A DNA stretch of 64,000 nt from Alphaproteobacteria bacterium (GTDB lineage: Bacteria; Pseudomonadota; Alphaproteobacteria; Rs-D84). Positions 12,489 to 24,476 of this stretch are shown here, piece after piece; positions within the stretch are counted from its first letter, which is position 1, and every line of letters starts with the position of its first letter. The position numbers and the translations under genes were made by a program. The stretch is from positions 14,100 to 78,099 of the forward strand of contig JAGBXO010000007.1 in NCBI GenBank assembly GCA_017629245.1. Reading direction: 5' to 3'. The notes under the pieces were generated by a model, which saw nothing but the letters and a program-made list of their open reading frames with translations, was not told where the DNA came from and made no database searches.

Positions 12489-12793
12489 TACAGATTTTGC
12501 TTTAACTTAATACCTGTATAACACAGTGACGCAGCGTCTCGCACCGCCATTTGACCGCTGTCGGGCAAGGTTGCCATTTTATCTATGCATGCAACCAACA
12601 TGTCAACATTACCTGTTGCACCTGTCATAATCTGTGCAGACGCAATCCTGCGCTCCATTGGCGTGGCACGCCAATCTTTTAATGTTGCAGTCTCTAGTGA
12701 ATCGCTGCGCTGTGCGAAAAAGAACACAACAATTACCAATAATAAAACAGCCACACCAATAAAAATCTTAAAATATTTTTTTGCAAAATTCAT
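12488..12793 (-). CDS. Small single-pass membrane protein, hypothetical
   Basis: N-terminal TM helix (IFIGVAVLLLVIVVFFFA). It overlaps both neighbours (1 nt and 4 nt), suggesting an operon. Confidence 0.4.
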   Translation of the reverse strand: MNFAKKYFKIFIGVAVLLLVIVVFFFAQRSDSLETATLKDWRATPMERRIASAQIMTGATGNVDMLVACIDKMATLPDSGQMAVRDAASLCYTGIKLKQNL

Positions 12794-13182
12794 TTTCTTT
12801 TCCCTCTTTGTGCTCCTTTAACCAGTTTAAAATAATCTGGGCGAATTTGTGCCGCATTTTGCAATAAATGTTGTTCTGACATTTTTTGTACAGAACGGTA
12901 CAGAACAGGTCTGTCTACAATTATTTTATTTCCTTCCTTTGTCCACGCCAAGTTTCGCAAATCCGTATATGCATCAATATTGATATCATTGGCATGCACA
13001 CGATAAATCGTGGTCCATATAATATTCCCCATTTCTATCTGTGAAGACTCTAATATCGCCTTGGCCACATCTTTATTTGTGCAAATATAAACCTGTTCAC
13101 CCGCATCGCACCACTGGTCACCGCGCGCCATCACATGATTACTGTTTCCTAACATATATCCAACAATATTTGCAATTTTCAT
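12790..13182 (-). CDS. Hypothetical protein (130 aa)
   Basis: First gene of a co-directional overlapping gene string that ends in tsaD and xseA. No recognised domain. Confidence 0.4.
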   Translation of the reverse strand: MKIANIVGYMLGNSNHVMARGDQWCDAGEQVYICTNKDVAKAILESSQIEMGNIIWTTIYRVHANDINIDAYTDLRNLAWTKEGNKIIVDRPVLYRSVQKMSEQHLLQNAAQIRPDYFKLVKGAQRGKRK

Positions 13183-13200: not shown

Positions 13201-13572
13201 TTATTCGCATTTTACCAGCCACACATCATAGTCCGGATGCTGCAATGGATTTTGCCCTGGTTCATTTCGTGACATCCAGCCACCAAAGACCCGGCCCTTA
13301 TCTCGTTCTGAAATTTCAAAGAACGCAAAGAAATCTTCTGGCTGGAATGGATCGGTTTGTTTACAAGACCGAACATTTATAAAAATTTTTTCAAACTGCA
13401 ATTCTTGATTCACAGGAATTGTCACCTGCTGAACCTTGCCAGCATCTTTATTCATTATCTTAACAACTGCCACATTGCGGTTTACATAAGCATCTGCCAC
13501 CACGGGCAGGGCACAAAGCAACCAAGATAAAATAATTTTTTTCATACCTACATGATACCCATCACATATCAA
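13201..13572 (-). CDS. Secreted DUF2155-like protein
   Basis: Signal peptide MKKIILSWLLCALPVVADA. Its ~120 aa length and C-terminal ...DYDVWLVKCE resemble the alphaproteobacterial DUF2155 family. Confidence 0.5.
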   Translation of the reverse strand: MICDGYHVGMKKIILSWLLCALPVVADAYVNRNVAVVKIMNKDAGKVQQVTIPVNQELQFEKIFINVRSCKQTDPFQPEDFFAFFEISERDKGRVFGGWMSRNEPGQNPLQHPDYDVWLVKCE

Positions 13573-13610
13573 TATGTCAAACCCATAAAAAGAAGTTTTT
13601 TATCATTTTG

Positions 13611-13638
13611 TTGACAAAATATGCTTCGGGGATATAAT
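13611..13638 (+). promoter_or_regulatory. Consensus sigma70 promoter (TTGACA-N16-TATAAT) for the nucleotidyltransferase/phosphoesterase pair
   Basis: TTGACA at 13611-13616 and TATAAT at 13633-13638 with a 16-nt spacer. The predicted TSS is ~13645, only 2-3 nt before the ATG at 13648, implying a leaderless or very short leader. Confidence 0.55.
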
Positions 13639-13647
13639 CAATCCACA

Positions 13648-14580
13648 ATGAAAAATCAATATAGTATTTTTGCAGGTATGACAAACCCCACCATGGCGGA
13701 AAAAGATTTCCTGGAATGTGCAATCTTGGACAAATTATTCCAAGACAAATTCTTTGCAGAAAATTTTGTGTTTGCGGGTGGCGGCTCTATTACCAAATCT
13801 TATGCATTCAGTCCGCGCATCAGCCAAGACTTAGATCTGGCATACACTGCCTTTTGCGACATTCCTGACACCCCGTCACGAAACCAGTTAAAGAAATTTC
13901 GCAAACGGTTTAAGACATTTATTTTTGAAACAATTGCTCCCCGAATAACCTCTCTGATTGCCGCGGACAATAAATACCAAATACTGACAGATCGCGAACA
14001 CTGCGTAAAGAGCAACAAAGAACAATGGCTGTCGTCACCTACAATCCACATATTGTATAAATCTGCATTTTATAACAGGACCGAAGAAATCCACATTGAA
14101 ATTATTCCGCGTAAATATTCACCGTCTGCGCTATCTTTTCATTCTGTAATGCCGTATGCATTACCTGGTGCCCGGTTTGGACATATTCCAACCGTTGCCT
14201 ATGAACAAACATTCTGGGACAAGGTTTTTGCCTTGCATTCAAACGCTTTGTCGGCACATCCGCATACAGATGCCTTTTATTCACGACACTATTTTGATGT
14301 TGCCAGACTGGCCGGTCGTGTTGATTTAGACAAAACCGCACATATGCTGTCAGATATTGCGCAGTACCAGGAAAAATACACAACCAAGCGACTGGGAACA
14401 GACATATCGCCCTGCGATGCTATTTTGATTCCATCAGATCCGGTTTTGTATGCCCTGGAATCAGACTATGACAATCTTGCACAGCAAACATTTATCGCAC
14501 CAAAAACTTCATGGAATTTAATTGTTCAGCGTCTTGAACAATTATCCCAAGACTTAAAGCAAATCGCATATCAAAGGTGA
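13648..14580 (+). CDS. AbiEii/AbiGii-like (DUF1814) Pol-beta-superfamily nucleotidyltransferase
   Basis: The Pol-beta NTase motif is present (FVFAGGGSITKSYAFSPRISQDLDLAY fits hG[GS]-x9-13-DhDh). The ~310 aa length is typical of AbiEii/MenT toxins. The start could instead be the ATG at 13678; the ORF-track start at 13621 lies inside the promoter. Confidence 0.65.
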   Translation: MKNQYSIFAGMTNPTMAEKDFLECAILDKLFQDKFFAENFVFAGGGSITKSYAFSPRISQDLDLAYTAFCDIPDTPSRNQLKKFRKRFKTFIFETIAPRITSLIAADNKYQILTDREHCVKSNKEQWLSSPTIHILYKSAFYNRTEEIHIEIIPRKYSPSALSFHSVMPYALPGARFGHIPTVAYEQTFWDKVFALHSNALSAHPHTDAFYSRHYFDVARLAGRVDLDKTAHMLSDIAQYQEKYTTKRLGTDISPCDAILIPSDPVLYALESDYDNLAQQTFIAPKTSWNLIVQRLEQLSQDLKQIAYQR

Positions 14581-14585
14581 TACAC

Positions 14586-15110
14586 ATGGCAAAATTTGTA
14601 TTCTCTGATCCGCATTTTAATTCTGAATCTATCATAAGAAATGGTCAGCGTCCATTTGTGAATATTGCTGAAATGAACGCAAAACTGATAGAAAATTATA
14701 ATTCTGTTGTTTCCAAACAAGATATATGTTATTGGCTGGGCGATATTATGTATGGTGCAACCCCTGACAAAGTGAAAAAGATTCTACAACAAATGCGTGG
14801 TCGCAAATATCTTATTATGGGCAATCACGACCGTGGACATTCAGAACATTGGTGGTTATCGGCTGGGTTTGACCGCGTTTATTCACATCCAATATATGAT
14901 GCAGAAAATTATATAATGCTGTCGCACGAACCATTGCCAGAATTTGGCAACCTGCCAAACATTGCGAACATTCATGGTCATATTCATATCCAAGATTACG
15001 ATTTCCCAGACCACGCACATTGCATAAATGTATGTGTTGAAAAAACGGATTACAAACCTGTACCATTAATCAATCCGTTTATTACCCAATCGCGCAAATT
15101 TTCACGCTAA
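14586..15110 (+). CDS. Calcineurin-like metallophosphoesterase (MPP superfamily)
   Basis: All MPP motifs in order: SDPHF (DxH), LGDIMYG (GD), MGNHD (GNHD), SHEP, IHGHIH (GHxH). A GGTGA RBS lies 5 nt upstream. A GTG at 14577 would overlap the NTase stop as GTGA. Confidence 0.75.
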   Translation: MAKFVFSDPHFNSESIIRNGQRPFVNIAEMNAKLIENYNSVVSKQDICYWLGDIMYGATPDKVKKILQQMRGRKYLIMGNHDRGHSEHWWLSAGFDRVYSHPIYDAENYIMLSHEPLPEFGNLPNIANIHGHIHIQDYDFPDHAHCINVCVEKTDYKPVPLINPFITQSRKFSR

Positions 15111-15111
15111 T

Positions 15112-15145
15112 AAAAATCCCCCAATTGGGGGATTGCTTTTATTTC
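15112..15145. terminator. Bidirectional terminator between phosphoesterase gene and dnaK
   Basis: ATCCCCC-aatt-GGGGGAT hairpin flanked by A-run/T-run. Confidence 0.5.
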
Positions 15146-17271: not shown

Positions 17272-20200
17272 CTATTGGTTATCATTCACCACAGAATACT
17301 TAGTATTATTATACTTCACCTTCAGTGGGCCCGATAACGTTGTACTCATATTACCATAGAACATCTTCTCGCCAACTTTCAGATGCAACAGTGGCGATAT
17401 CCCCGTGCGCTTTTCACTGCGCAGATATATTACATTATCACCTGCATGCAACTTGCGTCCACAGTCGCCGGCCTCGTTCGCGCACAGCCCCGCGCCACAT
17501 GTCACCAGACCTGTTGCACATGCCGTACGGGTCAGGCTGTCCGCCCCCGACCAGTATCCACTTTCAACATCCCGACATACATTCGCCAACAAATCTGACG
17601 ATGTTTTGTATGTAAAGTCTTGCGTGGCACTGGTACTATCATTAAACTGTTTATTGTAATACCCACCATTACATGTCAAGTCTGGCTTATTTACCCAACA
17701 GCCTTTACCATCACCCTTTACGCCATATGTGTCCGCACTCGCATCAACATAACACGAATACATAGTCAGATTCCCATCAGCTATTGATGCATTTTTAAAG
17801 CTTGCCTGACATCCTGCGCGAACTGTGTGATTCCCGGCCTCGTTGCTAGTATTCCAGTATCCATACCCCGATGCACCCGACACAGTCGGACATGGTTCAC
17901 ATTTACTCATACCTTCCTGGTCTGCATATGTCGCATCTGTACAAGCATCACAGCTGGATAATTCTCCATATGTCACTGGATGTGCTTCCTTGGCATAGCC
18001 CAACGCGCATTTACCACTGGCACTGCTTTCTTTGGCAACTTTAACATACTTGCCGCCCAGAACATTCATTGTACACTGTGATTCCAGGCTGTATCCTGTT
18101 GTACCATCACGATATCCCGGCGGGCATTCTTCTCTGCCACCCGCAGTATTACCGTATAACTTTATACCGCCCGGACAGTAATAACCGGCAGAACACGTGA
18201 CAAATTCTTGGTCTCCTTCTATCTCAACATAATTACCAGGAGTTGTTATTGCATAACACTGTTCATATTTATCCGCCCCCACATCAGATTTATTGAAAAC
18301 ATTGTCACCACTTTCATCACATGGCGTGCGTCCACCGGTTGTTGGGTGTGTATCAGATGATGTGCCACCATAGTATACCTTGACCGAACCTGGGCAATAT
18401 CCATCCGCTGCACACGAAACCAGACCCGCACCCGCATTCGCAACATAATTCGTGGCTGTTGTATTCAGGTAACAGTCATTAACCGTTGTTGCGCCCGCCG
18501 CAGACAACGTGTACTTACTATTTGTACCACTTGAACATGTCGCGCATGCATTGCTGTTCTTATAGTAGTTTGCAGAACATCCCGCTGTTGCCTTAATCGT
18601 GCACAGATTGGTCATCTTGTTATCTGTGCCCCAAACCGGCGTTTCCCAACCTGTTGATTCCACCCCCGTCGCGTTAGAGCAGGTTGCTGTACACGATGTC
18701 GCACCATCCGCACTGTTCGTCTTGCCCCCAGCACATGCTTTACACGCGCTTTGTCCTGTTGTATCAGTGTACGAACCCATCACACATTTCGTCTGGTTGC
18801 TGGCCCCTGTTGTACCGACAAAGTACCCCGCATCCGCCAAATTACATGCAACTGTATTACCCAATGCAACTGTAGTTGAGGCCTTGTATGTACCTGTCGC
18901 ACACGCCTTTGGTGCTGCTGATAACACAACCAGTTCGCCCGTTGGATTTTCAGTGTTCCGTGTTTGGAAATCCGCATCCTGGAATACTGTTGTATAATCC
19001 TGGTTGTTTTCCGATACAGAAATCGCCATATTCTGGTACACACGTCCGTCGGTGTACATCGCAAATTTAATAGACCCCAGATTTTGTACCGAACCCAAAT
19101 CCCAAACCAACGTTGACCCCTGGGCATACGTTTCCCCTGTTGTGCCACGTGTCCAGGAACCATCTGTTGCCGCCGTCAACTTTGAACCTGTTGTGCCACC
19201 TTTGCCAGACAACAGATTCGTACCTGTTCCATCTGCAGATGCAAACGCCTGGATTTCCAGCATGTGTGTATCAGAGTTTTTTGCACTGCCACTTGATGTC
19301 ACTTTGATATAACGCGCTGCAATCGTAGTAGCACCAACCATTTTACCTTGTACTGTCTGTACACAATCAGATTTTGCATCGTGACCACTGGCCGATGTAC
19401 TGGTCGATGTATATCCATCCATACAGTAATTAACAGGTGATATATTGCCCCAATTAACCAAATGTGCACCTGTGAACCAACCACCCGCTGGCGATGTACA
19501 TGCTGCATTCGCGCTAACAACACGCGTACCCGCTGCACAAGACGCCTGACACTGGCTTACATTTGTCTTACCAGTTTGCGTGCCACCACGATAGTTAGAA
19601 TCGCATATGCCACATGTTTGACCCTCGATACATGTGCCAGTTGCAGATGTGCCACCACCGTTGGAGTAGTATGCCACCGCTAATTTGCCACATGTTTTAC
19701 CACTGCCGGTACAGCCGTTACCGTTGGCGGTTGGTGTTTTTGTTGTTCCGCCACCTGTTGAATAATAACCGCCATCAACTATGCCGCATGTATTTGCTGT
19801 GCCATCAGATTTTTCCCCAACACAACTGTTTGACAGATATGGGGCGGCTTTTTTCGCACCACCTGTCGAATAATAACCTGCCTCAATCAGACCGCAACTT
19901 TTGCCATCAATACATGTGCCATTTGCCGTTGTTCCACCACCTGTTGCATAAAACCCACCAGCAATTGCGCCACATTCATAACCACTGATGCATGTACCAT
20001 TGGGCGACGTTCCACCACCAGTGCTGTAATAACCTGCCGCAACTGGGGACATAGATGAACCGTCGGTTGTATAATATCCCGCAGGTACCACACCTCCTTT
20101 ATAGTCACCGGAACAAACACCACCAATGTCATCTATACCACATCCGTCATTATAATATCCAGACTGAATCGCCCCACATTCACATCCTGCCGCGCAATCG

Positions 20201-23200
20201 ACATCTTGAGTTGCAGGGTATTTATATGTTGCACCACATGTCGAATAATAGCCACTTGATATAACACCGCAATAGTCATAATCGCCACCCATACCGATAC
20301 AATCAGACTTGGCAGTTGGTGTCGCAGTTTTGGCGCCTGAAACAGACCAATAGCCCGCATTAATTAAACCACATGTATTACCCGAACCGACACAATCAGA
20401 AGCCGTTGGTTTAGCCACGGTTGCGCCACCTGTTGCGAAATACCCACCGTCGACCTGGCCACTACCTGTGCTGGATGTTGCGCCTGCTGCCCCCCAATAA
20501 CCTGGTTCAACGGTACCACATTGCGTTGTGCTATCATTTACGCAACCACTACCACGCGTGACCGGTGTTGGTGATGTACCACCACCCATGTTATAATACC
20601 CCGCATTAACCTTGCCATTACCCATAGGCATTGTTGCACCACCGGTTGAGTAATATCCCGCATCAACCATGCCGCTACCCTTCTGGGTTGTTGCTCCGGC
20701 TTCGCCCCAATAGCCCGCTGCAATTCTTCCGCCCTGATTTTGAGAACATGAACTCTGGATTCCTCCCTCTGGATCTGCACCACAACCATTGTTCCAATAT
20801 CCTGCAGAAACCTTACCTGAACCCTTTGAACTCGTTGCGCCGTATCCGCCCCAATAACCCGCATCAATTATTCCTCCTCTATTGGATGAAGAACAAGAAG
20901 TATCGATTCCACCTTTTGGATTTATGCCACAACCGTCATTCCAATATCCTGGCAAAAGCTGGCCACAACCCTTATCTTTCAGGCATCCATTACCCGGACT
21001 GGTTGGTCTTGCAGCTGTTCCACCACCGGTTGAGTAAAATCCTGCATCAACCACGCCACTACCAGCCGGTGTTGTTGCGCCGGCTTCACCCCAATGCCCC
21101 GGACTAATAATTCCTCCTGCATACTCCGAACCACAAGCATCACTAATTCTCCCATCTGGATTTGTACCACAACCATTATTCCAATATCCTGCAGAAACCT
21201 TACCACAGCCATTAGTGCCCTCGAGAACACATCCATCTCCAGCTGTTGTTGGTGTTGCCGATGTTCCCCCTCCAGTGTTCCAATATCCTGCATCAATCGC
21301 GCCACATTCTTGTCCGTCCAGACATCCATTCCCCGCCTCGTACGGGTTTTCCAATGTTCCGCCACCATTGGAATAAAATCCTGCCAAAACCATGCCGCTA
21401 CCCTTCGAGGTTGTTGCGCCGGCTTCGCCCCAATAGCCCGCCTCAATTGTTCCGCACTCAAAGCCCAGCTTTGTGTTACATACACCTTCTGCATACATAC
21501 CTGCACCGGTTGAATAATACCCCGCTTTAACCTTGCCACAGCTTTGCCCCGGCAGGCATCCATTGCCCGCACCGGTTGGTGTCAACGACGTTCCACCGCT
21601 ATTGGAATAGTATCCTGCTGCAACACTGCCACATTCTTCGCCTTCTGCACAACCTGCACCAATCGCCGATGAACCACCACCAGTTGAATATGCGCCACCC
21701 GCAACCATTCCACATGCTTTAAATGAGCTATTCGACATACCTGGTTCCTCATAGTATCCTGTACAATCTGTACCATGAACCGGTGTTGCGGTTGTCATAC
21801 CAGTAACCCTACTGTAATATCCCGGCGCCAACTTTCCGCATTCCTGACCGGCCAGGCATCCGTTCCCCGCCGCGGTTGGTGTCGCCGACGTTCCACCGCC
21901 ATTGGAATAGTACCCAAGCCCAACTGCACCAGAACCCTTGCTGGATGTACCGGCACCTGCGGACCAATATCCCGGCTCAATCATACCGCATTCTTGCTGG
22001 CTGCGACATCCCATGCGAACAGTGCTTATCCCCTGATTTAACAAATCAACATTGAACCCCAGGGCAGTACTGTTTGTTACATCTAAATTCCCCGGTGCAG
22101 GCAATACACCACCACCCGTCGAATAATATCCTGGCAAAATCGAACCGCAGACATTTTTGCGTGGCACTTCAGTACTTCCCCAGATATCAGTTCCAATATA
22201 ACCAACACAATCTGCCGATGTTGGGTTTGATTTTATCGCCCCCCCGGTCGAGAAGTATCCTGCCTCAAGCTCGCCGCATGTTCCACCTGCTACGCAGTCT
22301 TCATTTGAATGTGGTTGGGCTGTTTTCGCACCACCGGTTGAAAAACAACCTGCCGCTACAGCACCTTCACCAGTTGAGCTTTTTCCGCCACCGCTTGACC
22401 AATAACCCGGGGCAACCTTGCCACAATTTTCGCCTGCAATACACCCGTTTCCACTGGCGGTTGGACGTGGATGTGTACCACCACCGGTTGAATAATAACC
22501 TGCATCAACAAAACCACAGCCCATAGAGTTTGCAACACCATCAATCGTTACCAGTTCACAGTCTGCACTCATATAACTTGGTGATTTCTTTTTCATCCCC
22601 GGTTGCACACTGAAATATCCCGCAGCCAATGGCCCACAACCATTGCCACCGACACAGCCCGTACCTTCTTTTGGTGTTGATGTTGTCGCACCACCAGCTG
22701 AATAGTATCCAACACTGACCAAACCATCAATCCCCAAATTATCAGCATATGTACCACTGCCACAAGATGTAAACCCCGTACGCCCGCTACAGTACGAACC
22801 AGCAGGGCATACCTGTGCATCACGATACAACATACTCCGGGTACTATCATCACAATAGGTATCTGAATACCTTGTCGTCAAATAATAACCTGCATTTGGG
22901 CGCGTATAATACAAATTGCCGTTTTTATCATATTTTTCGGTGCTGGTGTTATATTGCACAGCTTCTATTATAAAATAACCACGCGAGTTTGTATAAGAAT
23001 AAGTTGCCCTACAAGATTCAATCGTTGTCCCCCCAACCAAAGAACTCCAATCTGTTTGTTGTGCCGAACCTAATACCAAATTCTCGTTTGGATAAACATA
23101 GGCACCGTGTGTCAGGTTATCATAACTGGTCATCTTATGATCCGCAACCGTCGGACATGCCGTACATTCCACAACATCCGATGCAGCAACGGTCACTTCG

Positions 23201-24390
23201 CCGTGATATGTCCCGGGCACGCATTGGGTATTTGTTCTGACCCTGACGGGTACATGTTGCATCACGGCCGGTGCTGCCGAGGTAGAACTAACCAGGCCAT
23301 TAAATACAGTTGTCCATGTTGTGGCATCGGCCGATATTTCGATTACGATCTTGCGCGTAATATTACCCCCCAACGCAAATAAAATATTTGAAATCGGCAC
23401 AACCCCACTTGTTCTAAACATCGCCATATATCCCTGGGCAGATGTTGCACTTACTACAGCAGTAGTACCCAAATTACCATCTATGGCATTACCTGCACTT
23501 ATCATAGAAGAATTTGCACTTAATCCCTGTGCTACACCATCGGAAATCACTTGAATTTCTGCCAATGGAAACGCACCTTGCACAGAACTGATTCGGATAT
23601 ATTGTGCATCTGGTTCGGCGACCACAGAACTGTATCCACCCGGCACCGTCACCAAACAATCGGCCGCCGAATCATGTAAACTAGGTACCATGCCACGCAT
23701 ATCAGAACCGTATGGACAATAGGTAATTGATGAAATCCTACCATAGTAAACATTATGTACTTTCGAACTGTACCATGACATACCTATGGTCGAGTCACTT
23801 CCCGTAGTACAGGCGTTACCAGGGCTAAACACAGCCGTACCAGGCGCACAAGTTGCATAACAATCCGATTGTGAATCTGAACCCGCCGCACTGTTTCCAT
23901 AACCTGTTGGGCATGCAGTTGGGCTGCTACTGCCTTCTGGACAGTATGAATTTGCAGGACAAGCACCCGTAATTCCACGATCTGTTGATGTTGCAACTTC
24001 GTCTGTTGTATCTGTTGGCGCATCGCAAACTTTCCCCGCAGGACACTTAGCGCATGTTGTAGTGCCCGCCATGATATATTCCCCAGCGGCGCAATGAATC
24101 CCCGCCCTTACCGGACACGCTTGACCGCCTAAACATTTATACCCATCTGGACACTTTAAACATGTTTTGCCAACGACAGGCGTGGCCATAGTTCCCGTCC
24201 ACGCCGACGAATCGGTGCCGCATGCCTCAAGATAATAGCCTTCGACACACGAAGTATACGTCTCAACCGTGTTACAGGTATACCCCGCCGCCATCAAATT
24301 ACCGGTAAAAAGCAAAACGAATAAAAACGCGCAAAACCGCAGAAATCTAAACATTCTTCCCACTTTCTTTTTCTCTTTTGTATTTATCAT
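17272..24390 (-). CDS. Giant (~2370 aa) secreted cysteine-rich surface protein with two F5/8-type-C (discoidin)-like domains and ~30 tandem Gly-rich repeats
   Basis: Signal peptide (MINTKEKKKVGRMFRFLRFCAFLFVLLFTGNLMA). The maximal ORF extends to 24474; likely starts are 24390 or 24354. Two discoidin-like regions are present (…AGNAIDGNLGTTAV… and …ATDGSWTRGTTGETYAQGSTLVWDLG…). A long array of ~35-aa repeats of form AGY(Y/W)S-GGG-S-TPT--GNGC--G--CG-h-AGY follows. Cys-rich modules (CxxC.AG.Y., TTPGNYV...C.AGYYCPGG) are shared with the 38733..45632 protein. Confidence 0.6.
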   Translation of the reverse strand: MINTKEKKKVGRMFRFLRFCAFLFVLLFTGNLMAAGYTCNTVETYTSCVEGYYLEACGTDSSAWTGTMATPVVGKTCLKCPDGYKCLGGQACPVRAGIHCAAGEYIMAGTTTCAKCPAGKVCDAPTDTTDEVATSTDRGITGACPANSYCPEGSSSPTACPTGYGNSAAGSDSQSDCYATCAPGTAVFSPGNACTTGSDSTIGMSWYSSKVHNVYYGRISSITYCPYGSDMRGMVPSLHDSAADCLVTVPGGYSSVVAEPDAQYIRISSVQGAFPLAEIQVISDGVAQGLSANSSMISAGNAIDGNLGTTAVVSATSAQGYMAMFRTSGVVPISNILFALGGNITRKIVIEISADATTWTTVFNGLVSSTSAAPAVMQHVPVRVRTNTQCVPGTYHGEVTVAASDVVECTACPTVADHKMTSYDNLTHGAYVYPNENLVLGSAQQTDWSSLVGGTTIESCRATYSYTNSRGYFIIEAVQYNTSTEKYDKNGNLYYTRPNAGYYLTTRYSDTYCDDSTRSMLYRDAQVCPAGSYCSGRTGFTSCGSGTYADNLGIDGLVSVGYYSAGGATTSTPKEGTGCVGGNGCGPLAAGYFSVQPGMKKKSPSYMSADCELVTIDGVANSMGCGFVDAGYYSTGGGTHPRPTASGNGCIAGENCGKVAPGYWSSGGGKSSTGEGAVAAGCFSTGGAKTAQPHSNEDCVAGGTCGELEAGYFSTGGAIKSNPTSADCVGYIGTDIWGSTEVPRKNVCGSILPGYYSTGGGVLPAPGNLDVTNSTALGFNVDLLNQGISTVRMGCRSQQECGMIEPGYWSAGAGTSSKGSGAVGLGYYSNGGGTSATPTAAGNGCLAGQECGKLAPGYYSRVTGMTTATPVHGTDCTGYYEEPGMSNSSFKACGMVAGGAYSTGGGSSAIGAGCAEGEECGSVAAGYYSNSGGTSLTPTGAGNGCLPGQSCGKVKAGYYSTGAGMYAEGVCNTKLGFECGTIEAGYWGEAGATTSKGSGMVLAGFYSNGGGTLENPYEAGNGCLDGQECGAIDAGYWNTGGGTSATPTTAGDGCVLEGTNGCGKVSAGYWNNGCGTNPDGRISDACGSEYAGGIISPGHWGEAGATTPAGSGVVDAGFYSTGGGTAARPTSPGNGCLKDKGCGQLLPGYWNDGCGINPKGGIDTSCSSSNRGGIIDAGYWGGYGATSSKGSGKVSAGYWNNGCGADPEGGIQSSCSQNQGGRIAAGYWGEAGATTQKGSGMVDAGYYSTGGATMPMGNGKVNAGYYNMGGGTSPTPVTRGSGCVNDSTTQCGTVEPGYWGAAGATSSTGSGQVDGGYFATGGATVAKPTASDCVGSGNTCGLINAGYWSVSGAKTATPTAKSDCIGMGGDYDYCGVISSGYYSTCGATYKYPATQDVDCAAGCECGAIQSGYYNDGCGIDDIGGVCSGDYKGGVVPAGYYTTDGSSMSPVAAGYYSTGGGTSPNGTCISGYECGAIAGGFYATGGGTTANGTCIDGKSCGLIEAGYYSTGGAKKAAPYLSNSCVGEKSDGTANTCGIVDGGYYSTGGGTTKTPTANGNGCTGSGKTCGKLAVAYYSNGGGTSATGTCIEGQTCGICDSNYRGGTQTGKTNVSQCQASCAAGTRVVSANAACTSPAGGWFTGAHLVNWGNISPVNYCMDGYTSTSTSASGHDAKSDCVQTVQGKMVGATTIAARYIKVTSSGSAKNSDTHMLEIQAFASADGTGTNLLSGKGGTTGSKLTAATDGSWTRGTTGETYAQGSTLVWDLGSVQNLGSIKFAMYTDGRVYQNMAISVSENNQDYTTVFQDADFQTRNTENPTGELVVLSAAPKACATGTYKASTTVALGNTVACNLADAGYFVGTTGASNQTKCVMGSYTDTTGQSACKACAGGKTNSADGATSCTATCSNATGVESTGWETPVWGTDNKMTNLCTIKATAGCSANYYKNSNACATCSSGTNSKYTLSAAGATTVNDCYLNTTATNYVANAGAGLVSCAADGYCPGSVKVYYGGTSSDTHPTTGGRTPCDESGDNVFNKSDVGADKYEQCYAITTPGNYVEIEGDQEFVTCSAGYYCPGGIKLYGNTAGGREECPPGYRDGTTGYSLESQCTMNVLGGKYVKVAKESSASGKCALGYAKEAHPVTYGELSSCDACTDATYADQEGMSKCEPCPTVSGASGYGYWNTSNEAGNHTVRAGCQASFKNASIADGNLTMYSCYVDASADTYGVKGDGKGCWVNKPDLTCNGGYYNKQFNDSTSATQDFTYKTSSDLLANVCRDVESGYWSGADSLTRTACATGLVTCGAGLCANEAGDCGRKLHAGDNVIYLRSEKRTGISPLLHLKVGEKMFYGNMSTTLSGPLKVKYNNTKYSVVNDNQ
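19700..22800 (-). repeat. Intragenic tandem repeat array (~100-nt period, Gly/Cys-rich ~33-35 aa units) inside the giant protein gene
   Basis: Repeated peptide units are visible in the translation (AGYYSTGGGTS.TPT..GNGC..G..CG...AGYW, GYWGEAGATT.KGSG.V.AGYY...). Boundaries are approximate. Confidence 0.55.
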
Positions 24391-24476
24391 AGAAAAACCA
24401 GCATTTTTGCACAAGTAAAAAATTCCCCAATCACAGAAATTATTTTTTTGACAGTATGTTTTACTATCCGCCAATC

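Follow-up and report, generated by a model that had tools for sequence, protein, structure and literature searches.

An AbiEii-family nucleotidyltransferase paired with a downstream metallophosphoesterase at one intergenic site of Candidatus Enterousia and relatives: a possible variant of the AbiE/MenAT toxin-antitoxin module

The sequence analyzed was a 64-kb window (64,000 nucleotides of contig JAGBXO010000007.1, assembly GCA_017629245.1), in which a 1.5-kb insert at 13611-15134 was found to be a compact two-gene cassette, with a nucleotidyltransferase (NTase) gene followed by a phosphoesterase gene. The pairing is confined to one lineage, Candidatus Enterousia/order Rs-D84, and occupies the same intergenic site each time. 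The elements of the cassette and its left boundary are listed below.

13611..13638, + strand: sigma-70 consensus promoter of the cassette, with TTGACA at 13611-13616, a 16-nt spacer, and TATAAT at 13633-13638 (12/12 match)
13648..14580, + strand: predicted AbiEii/DUF1814 (MenT-like) NTase of 310 aa, called from Pfam, PADLOC, the fold, and a start common to homologs
14574..14580, + strand: Shine-Dalgarno-like AAGGTGA for the phosphoesterase, within the last NTase codons and stop
14586..15110, + strand: predicted calcineurin-like metallophosphoesterase of 174 aa with five intact metal-binding motifs
15115..15134, both strands: bidirectional intrinsic terminator (AATCCCCCAATTGGGGGATT), a perfect 8-bp stem with 5 G-C pairs and T-runs on either side
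13552..13580, − strand: promoter of the divergent DUF2155 gene (TTGACA-N17-TATCAT; 11/12 match), the left boundary of the cassette and outside it

The cassette promoter is the sole perfect sigma-70 match (TTGACA-N16-TATAAT) in the window, where 0.07 would be expected by chance. It had been called in an earlier note made from the DNA letters of this stretch, and that call was borne out, as were those of a divergent DUF2155 gene upstream (Pfam E value of 5.4e-24), a 5-nt gap between the two genes with a GTG option overlapping the stop, and a bidirectional terminator, the stem of which scored on both strands. The DUF2155 gene has its own back-to-back promoter, and the terminator is common to the cassette and the convergent dnaK gene. 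At the gene junction the NTase stop codon (TGA, 14578-14580) precedes the phosphoesterase ATG at 14586, and the alternative GTG is at 14577. The start of gene 1 had been placed at ATG 13621, which falls within the promoter; it was moved to ATG 13648, which is conserved among homologs and lies 10 nt past the −10 box. The GC content of the cassette (0.375-0.415) is similar to that of the neighboring genes.

The same layout was seen among 42 carrier loci (L001-L039, L085, L087, and the window region). The best promoter-like site matched at 10/12 positions or better in 40 of them and lay 7 to 11 nt 5' of the NTase start codon in 36. Such spacing leaves about 3 nt at most between the expected start of transcription and the start codon, so that the NTase mRNA is probably leaderless. 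The junction was kept across these loci, with the phosphoesterase ATG either overlapping the NTase stop (ATGA) or lying up to about 24 nt beyond it, and a GGTGA, GGGGG, or AGGAG element was present in or just past the NTase 3' end in most of them. The phosphoesterase is predicted to be translationally coupled to the NTase. A conserved leaderless mRNA behind a near-consensus promoter with no repressor is unusual for a presumed toxin gene.

By profile and predicted fold, gene 1 is assigned as an AbiEii/DUF1814 (MenT-family) NTase with an apparently intact active site, in agreement with the proposal of the earlier note. It matched Pfam AbiEii (PF08843) over residues 35-289 with 71.3 bits against a cutoff of 22.5 (E value of 1.5e-19) and was matched by fifteen PADLOC AbiEii models, the best with an E value of 4.8e-37; a protein identical to it carries the NCBI annotation "AbiEii/AbiGII toxin family." The Pol-beta motif GGGS-x13-DLDL is present, and the catalytic set was assigned as G44-G45, D61-x-D63, E151, K192, and R213-H214-Y215-x-D217. 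In the alignment, G44, G45, D61, D63, E151, K192, H214, Y215, and D217 are invariant in the clade and in canonical outgroup AbiEii proteins. The AlphaFold2 monomer model had a predicted local distance difference test (pLDDT) score of 88.8, and its top 13 Foldseek matches in the PDB were MenT3/TglT (Rv1045), Helicobacter pylori JHP933, and MenT4 (E values of 2e-6 to 5e-5; template modeling scores of 0.45-0.63). A PDB sequence search with a profile of the clade NTases gave no matches, and MenT4 and AbiEii were reached with a mixed profile only. Close relatives in the protein search numbered about 113 at 37-100% identity, after which identity fell sharply to 25%.

Gene 2 scored 29.8 bits against Pfam Metallophos (PF00149; cutoff, 21.5), placing both proteins above their Pfam cutoffs. 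Its five motifs, SDPHF, LGD, GNHD, SHEP, and HGHIH, are invariant among 27 homologs, its model had a pLDDT of 96.3, and it is assigned from these features as a complete calcineurin-like metallophosphoesterase, as had been claimed, of the phage-type phrog_547/Aquifex aq_1665/D29 Gp66 family. The next-best structural relatives were LpxH, the MJ0936 phosphodiesterase, the MPE nuclease, YfcE, the PolD DP1 exonuclease, and SbcD, with the lambda protein phosphatase ranking lower. The PPP-type signature (GDxHG/GDxVDRG/GNHE) was not found in the protein, which carries LGDIMYG and GNHD instead, and assignment as a PdeM/MPE ligase-associated endonuclease (TIGR04123), judged by profile threshold and Lhr-ligase linkage, was not supported. 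The profile of the family matched Gp66 of mycobacteriophage D29, a Cluster A phage, with a probability of 97.8% (E value of 8.7e-13). Gp66 is reported to be a 2',3'-cyclic nucleotide phosphodiesterase in a title cited in PMC12287305. Gp48 of the Cluster A mycobacteriophage A10ZJ24 was found to be a phosphodiesterase with little monoesterase activity that is toxic to the host and damages DNA, and was said to be much like the enzymes of other Cluster A phages (PMC12287305); any resemblance to the cassette phosphoesterase would be by way of D29 Gp66.

More than 100 relatives of the phosphoesterase at 56-95% identity were found by protein search, and phage homologs were present in 976 phage genomes. 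Many of the NTase and phosphoesterase matches agree in the length of their longest contig, a hint that the genes lie on common contigs; that they are adjacent is shown by the loci described below. The Enterousia enzymes are 35-49% identical to small phage metallophosphoesterases and differ from them in being always coupled to an NTase and in carrying clade-specific segments (PEFGN, DYDFxxH, and a C-terminal NPxxxxxRxFxR tail). Small enzymes of this kind are D29 Gp66, Cluster A Gp48, and the phrog_547 group, together with Aquifex aq_1665 (PDB 1XM7); those of phages stand alone, often in replication or recombination modules. Homologs without an NTase are common on plasmids and in phages, both plasmid homologs inspected stand alone, and no consistent functional partner was found in the phage and plasmid neighborhoods. 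Individual phage homologs were located beside PTH2, ASCH, and HD_4 genes (L081:1034-6003), beside PemK, a second Metallophos gene, and RecA (L082:4288-7725), between a DnaB helicase and SbcCD-like nucleases in a replication/recombination module of the Herelleviridae (L089:4618-8589), and, in a Brevundimonas jumbo phage, about 2 kb from an RtcB RNA ligase.

The nearest NTases outside the lineage are 23-28% identical and come from Acidobacteriota, Mesorhizobium, cyanobacteria, and others. At 11 of the 12 outgroup AbiEii loci inspected, an open reading frame (ORF) of 202-232 aa lies immediately upstream, overlapping or abutting the NTase gene. Five upstream outgroup ORFs examined were DUF6088/AbiEi_4, and a sixth, of 123 aa, gave a partial DUF6088 match. 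A hidden Markov model built from 10 outgroup AbiEi proteins matched neither the window nor any of 41 carrier loci at an E value of ≤10. The absence of an AbiEi partner, seen already in the earlier note, thus extends to the related loci, and the nearest AbiEii relatives outside the lineage do have one.

AbiEii and MenT1/3 are tRNA 3'-end NTase toxins, and AbiEi, MenA1, and MenA3 neutralize them by triggering auto-phosphorylation at a Ser or Thr of the active site, which is T65 in AbiEii, S78 in MenT3, and T39 in MenT1 (PMC11375011; bioRxiv 10.64898/2026.01.19.700257). When the mixed profile was aligned to PDB 9hlo_B, T65 was located two residues ahead of the first catalytic Asp (R-S-T65-V-D-I-D), and the MenT3 numbering R76/S78/K79/D82 agrees with this column. 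The corresponding residue of the window NTase is S59. Among 109 clade NTases, the position is occupied by G in 70 (64%), S in 28, C in 8, T in 2, and A in 1, with G, A, and C together accounting for 72%. The conserved Ser/Thr phosphoacceptor that marks membership of AbiE/MenAT3 was therefore not found across the clade, though the window has S59. The five phosphoesterase motifs are intact whatever the acceptor residue of the partner NTase (loci with S, 10; G, 29; C, 4; N, 2). Because the acceptor is mostly G, C, or A and the phosphoesterase is intact in those loci, control by the known phosphorylation switch cannot hold for the clade in general.

The distribution of the cassette was obtained from two scans. 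In the carrier scan, which covered one genome per GTDB species with the NTase as seed, 39 loci were returned, all from gut Alphaproteobacteria assigned to Candidatus Enterousia or relatives in the order Rs-D84, organisms of this type having genomes of 0.75-1.0 Mb (PMC12306168). At every one of these loci the phosphoesterase is directly 3' of the NTase, and the left flank reads tsaD, (AmiA-like), hyp101, (hyp130), DUF2155. The ancestral right flank is a convergent rplS-trmD-rimM-rpsP operon, present in about 28 loci including the deepest ones; dnaK takes its place in the window and two close relatives. The second scan was of metagenome contigs with the DUF2155 protein as seed, and 50 loci had enough upstream sequence. 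Both genes were present in 10 of these, neither in 40, and a single gene in none. For the 54 carrier loci in all, both genes were kept wherever the contig permits, and none had one gene only. The earlier note had made the pair stand or fall with co-conservation of the two genes in other genomes, and the neighborhood survey found them strictly co-inherited and co-lost. A core housekeeping pair of the clade, which the 39/39 result had suggested, was ruled out by the 40 empty sites among the 50; the 39/39 result is an ascertainment bias, because the NTase-seeded scan could return carriers alone.

Most empty loci have rplS in the same orientation as DUF2155 and about 100 nt away from it. At the empty site of L171, a close relative with a tsaD 87% identical, the DUF2155 promoter is kept and comes right after the dnaK terminator, and no remnants of the cassette were found. 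The cassette is accessory and dispensable, and the surrounding genes are not. The description of an accessory patch between tsaD and dnaK had to be narrowed accordingly: with the exception of hyp130, the genes from tsaD to the cassette are syntenic in every related genome, and the cassette alone is variable, at one fixed site and with normal GC content. No integrase, transposase, or other mobility genes flank it, the flanks being core genes, and neither a mobile defense island nor a known anti-phage architecture was recognized beyond the variable presence at one site. The pairing was not found elsewhere: no phosphoesterase accompanied the NTase at 41 outgroup AbiEii loci, none of 84 phage loci had an AbiEii gene within 4 kb of a phosphoesterase homolog, and no NTase relatives were found in IMG/VR.

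Other changes were seen at the same site. In L225 (390-4000), a different 3.6-kb cargo occupies the rplS|DUF2155 site in reverse orientation and comprises a PQ-loop membrane protein and four ORFs (150, 254, 301, and 177 aa) that matched nothing in Pfam or PADLOC; this intergenic site may act as a small hotspot for integration. In one sub-lineage (L174:1766-3815, L175:320-2369, L178, and L180), the rpsP-rimM-trmD-rplS block is inverted relative to DUF2155, with rpsP divergent from it. The junction at DUF2155 is a recurrent rearrangement breakpoint. A second variable gene is hyp130 (window 12790-13182, − strand; 130 aa), which was detected in 20 of the 39 GTDB carrier loci at 34-91% identity and had no family match.

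Carriers were interspersed with empty sites in a tree built from tsaD at 87 loci, which requires at least 13 state changes, compared with 28.9 ± 2.4 when the states were shuffled. Pairwise divergence was correlated between NTase and tsaD (r = 0.73), DUF2155 and tsaD (r = 0.69), and NTase and phosphoesterase (r = 0.78). The simplest history is an old insertion with mostly vertical descent and repeated clean joint loss of both genes. The pair has been kept together, with its coupling conserved, over divergence reaching down to 36-38% NTase identity. The dN/dS ratios of unsaturated pairs were 0.10 for the NTase, 0.12 for the phosphoesterase, and 0.10 for tsaD, and the median dN values over all pairs were 0.49, 0.22, and 0.145, respectively; both cassette genes are under purifying selection. 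The sole defect among carrier loci complete enough to judge was in L037 (6330-6360), where one inserted G (CGT-G-GAT) shifts the NTase reading frame between residues 116 and 123 and the phosphoesterase is intact. If the frameshift is real, decay began with the NTase, as would be expected if it is a toxin and the phosphoesterase its antidote.

We hypothesized that the cassette is a lineage-specific variant of the AbiE/MenAT toxin-antitoxin (TA) module in which the antidote is a phosphodiesterase in place of AbiEi, and we give this slightly less than an even chance. It is supported by the intact toxin-family NTase, the absence of AbiEi, the strict co-inheritance and co-loss of the two genes, and the conserved operon design. 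In the reference systems, AbiE (AbiEi-AbiEii) of Streptococcus agalactiae and MenAT1/MenAT3 of Mycobacterium tuberculosis, DUF1814 NTase toxins are accompanied by AbiEi/COG5340 or MenA antitoxins (type IV/VII TA). The cassette resembles these in the Pfam family, fold, and catalytic motifs of its NTase, in its two-gene operon, and in its presumed target, tRNA 3' ends. It differs in having no AbiEi/MenA partner and no autoregulator, in a partner that is an enzyme and is encoded downstream, in a phosphoacceptor position that is mostly Gly, and in an NTase whose mRNA, made from a consensus promoter, is predicted to be leaderless; the NTase shares only about 25% sequence identity with canonical AbiEii. 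TA systems commonly swap partners. The literature searched contained no prior description of an AbiEii/DUF1814 NTase paired with a metallophosphoesterase, nor of any metallophosphoesterase antitoxin.

By analogy with the characterized toxins, the NTase would add nucleotides to tRNA 3'-CCA ends and so block aminoacylation. The canonical AbiEi, which induces toxin auto-phosphorylation and represses the operon, would have been lost, along with the phosphoacceptor residue in most clade members, and the phage-type binuclear metallophosphoesterase immediately downstream would have taken over as the neutralizing partner. Its most likely mode of action would be to trim the aberrant 3' extension, with binding to the NTase as a possible added contribution. 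The constitutive consensus promoter would give one bicistronic transcript, on which a poorly translated leaderless NTase and a strong coupled ribosome binding site for the phosphoesterase may keep the antidote in excess. The cassette might benefit its host through abortive phage defense, growth control, or simple addiction.

The more specific claim, that the phosphoesterase is a catalytic antidote which hydrolytically removes the nucleotides added by the NTase, is advanced with greater reserve and is considered somewhat unlikely. Catalytic reversal was favored as the mechanism because the phosphoesterase active site is invariant, its relatives are diesterases or nucleases, and MenT3 can be detoxified by trimming, as overexpressed RNase PH or CCA-adding enzyme removes the added nucleotides (PMC11541572). 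The proposed logic of a transferase toxin and a hydrolase erasing its modification is like that of DarT-DarG, toxSAS with small alarmone hydrolase, and Fic-1-AntF; unlike in those systems, erasure by the cassette is a proposal, and both of its protein families differ from theirs. The toxSAS toxins are likewise reported to act on the tRNA CCA end (bioRxiv 10.1101/2021.04.30.441581).

Several points weigh against the variant TA module. The NTase-first gene order is the reverse of that in AbiE and MenAT. The cassette has no DNA-binding autoregulator, and its promoter matches the consensus perfectly; a constitutive toxin working against a catalytic eraser would amount to a futile cycle, unless binding by the phosphoesterase were inhibitory as well. 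The NTase is the fastest evolving of the three genes compared, with twice the median dN of the phosphoesterase, and in many TA pairs the antitoxin is the faster-evolving member. PADLOC recognizes the NTase alone and has no model matching the phosphoesterase, and the defense role suggested in the earlier note gained no support. Since the phage and plasmid homologs of the phosphoesterase stand alone, the wider family context gives no hint of an antitoxin. The L037 frameshift could be real toxin-first decay or an error in a metagenome-assembled genome. Finally, the toxicity and substrate of the NTase and its rescue by the phosphoesterase are predictions from sequence and from analogy.

A tRNA/RNA 3'-end repair couple was weighed as an alternative, and joint gain and loss of the genes fits such a two-step pathway equally well. 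Here, ribotoxins would leave 2',3'-cyclic-phosphate or 3'-phosphate ends, which the phosphoesterase would heal and the NTase would re-extend; neither protein would be toxic, and the couple would serve a beneficial accessory function. This would agree with the profile match to Gp66, given the cyclic phosphodiesterase activity attributed to it in a title cited in PMC12287305, and with the proximity of the Brevundimonas phage homolog to RtcB. The genes of the two tRNA species sampled in fetched clade loci (Gly-CCC and Arg-CCG) encode CCA, and a 3'-end NTase would therefore serve repair rather than maturation. The pair is also functionally analogous to the class II CCA-adding enzyme, with its NTase head and HD phosphohydrolase domain, and to the Pnkp phosphoesterase module, in which a 3'-end nucleotidyltransferase is joined with a metal-dependent phosphodiesterase that heals such ends; the HD domain of the Escherichia coli CCA enzyme has cyclic phosphodiesterase activity. 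Unlike these, the cassette has an unrelated NTase subfamily, two separate proteins, and a dispensable status, and it gives no sign of templated CCA synthesis. All DUF1814 NTases that have been characterized are toxins that inhibit growth and add C, U, or G without a template, and none rebuilds CCA; the nearest NTase relatives are in canonical TA pairs. The absence of the cassette from most related genomes argues against a needed housekeeping repair activity, and the Herelleviridae homolog sits in a DNA replication/recombination module away from RNA repair genes. A repair couple is considered improbable.

The roles could also be reversed: the toxin would be the phosphoesterase, acting as a nuclease or phosphodiesterase, and the NTase, a type VII-style antitoxin, would inactivate it by nucleotidylation, as MNT does HEPN. 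A modifier-first order and a faster-evolving upstream gene match the usual antitoxin-toxin layout, and the closest structural relatives of the phosphoesterase include the nucleases MPE, SbcD, and Mre11. The toxicity and DNA damage reported for A10ZJ24 Gp48 would point the same way (PMC12287305) if Gp48 resembles the cassette enzyme. DUF1814 NTases are known as toxins only, however, and NTase-free homologs of the supposed toxin are common on plasmids and in phages. The L037 locus has a frameshifted NTase and an intact phosphoesterase, which under such an arrangement should be lethal if the frameshift is real. This arrangement is judged quite improbable.

A still more doubtful proposal makes the phosphoesterase a dedicated phosphoprotein phosphatase, the "missing eraser" of the AbiEii/MenT switch, that would activate the NTase by removing its inhibitory auto-phosphate. 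Cellular Ser/Thr phosphatases can strip the phosphate from phosphorylated AbiEii and MenT3 (AbiEii-p and MenT3-p) in vitro, and it has been proposed that phosphatases reactivate these toxins (bioRxiv 10.64898/2026.01.19.700257); the window NTase does have a Ser at the acceptor position. Across the clade, the phosphoesterase is fully conserved where that position is Gly, Ala, or Cys, and there is no AbiEi to induce phosphorylation. Its LGDIMYG and GNHD motifs are not the GDxVDRG and GNHE of PPP-type enzymes. Phosphodiesterases and nucleases outrank the lambda phosphatase among its structural relatives, and Gp48, which may resemble it, has little monoesterase activity (PMC12287305). A phosphatase of the canonical phospho-site was disfavored, the acceptor being mostly Gly and the motifs intact regardless.

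Least probable of all are unrelated neighbors on a common transcript or a pair that makes and degrades a nucleotide second messenger, a signaling role raised in the earlier note that gained no support: the phosphoesterase family is promiscuous and often stand-alone, and nucleotide pyrophosphatases (LpxH and ApaH-like) are among its structural relatives, but no single-gene locus occurred among 54 carriers and 40 empty sites, the pair stays together with conserved coupling down to the lowest NTase identities, no sensor or effector gene is present, and DUF1814 enzymes are not known as signal synthases. What probability remains beyond these readings falls to some explanation not yet thought of.

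AbiEii/MenT toxins form a widespread family relevant to tuberculosis and phage defense, and the field has recently converged on antitoxin-induced auto-phosphorylation as their unifying control. The Enterousia lineage is a natural case in which this control cannot apply, AbiEi being absent and the acceptor mostly Gly, and in which an enzyme of a different class has been retained with the NTase over long divergence in genomes of less than 1 Mb. The empty and occupied alleles at one locus offer a clean natural comparison. If the phosphoesterase is the antidote, it would represent a new mechanism of neutralization for the AbiEii/MenT family, would provide a tool for reversing tRNA 3'-end nucleotidylation, and would suggest a function for the large family of phage phosphoesterases. 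If it is a catalytic eraser, it would be the first dedicated eraser antitoxin for this family and the first metallophosphoesterase antitoxin; the toxin family would then be able to swap a phosphorylation-inducing partner for a damage-reversing enzyme, and the stand-alone phage homologs might be anti-defense erasers of a like kind. Should the pair instead act in repair, a DUF1814 NTase would for the first time be seen in a non-toxic role.

Two further observations were made on neighboring genes of the window. The listed TTG start of the DUF2155 gene, at 13572, overlaps the predicted promoter of that gene (13580-13552, − strand), and because of this overlap the start is probably ATG 13545, which gives a signal-peptide-like N terminus (MKKIILSW...). 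At 17272-24474 (− strand) lies an ORF of 2400 aa with Gly/Tyr/Ser-rich repeats (GYYSTGGG, CG.V.AGYW, and similar) and Cys-rich ends; its product is presumably a giant repeat protein, either secreted or located at the surface, and is striking for an organism with a genome of about 0.9 Mb.

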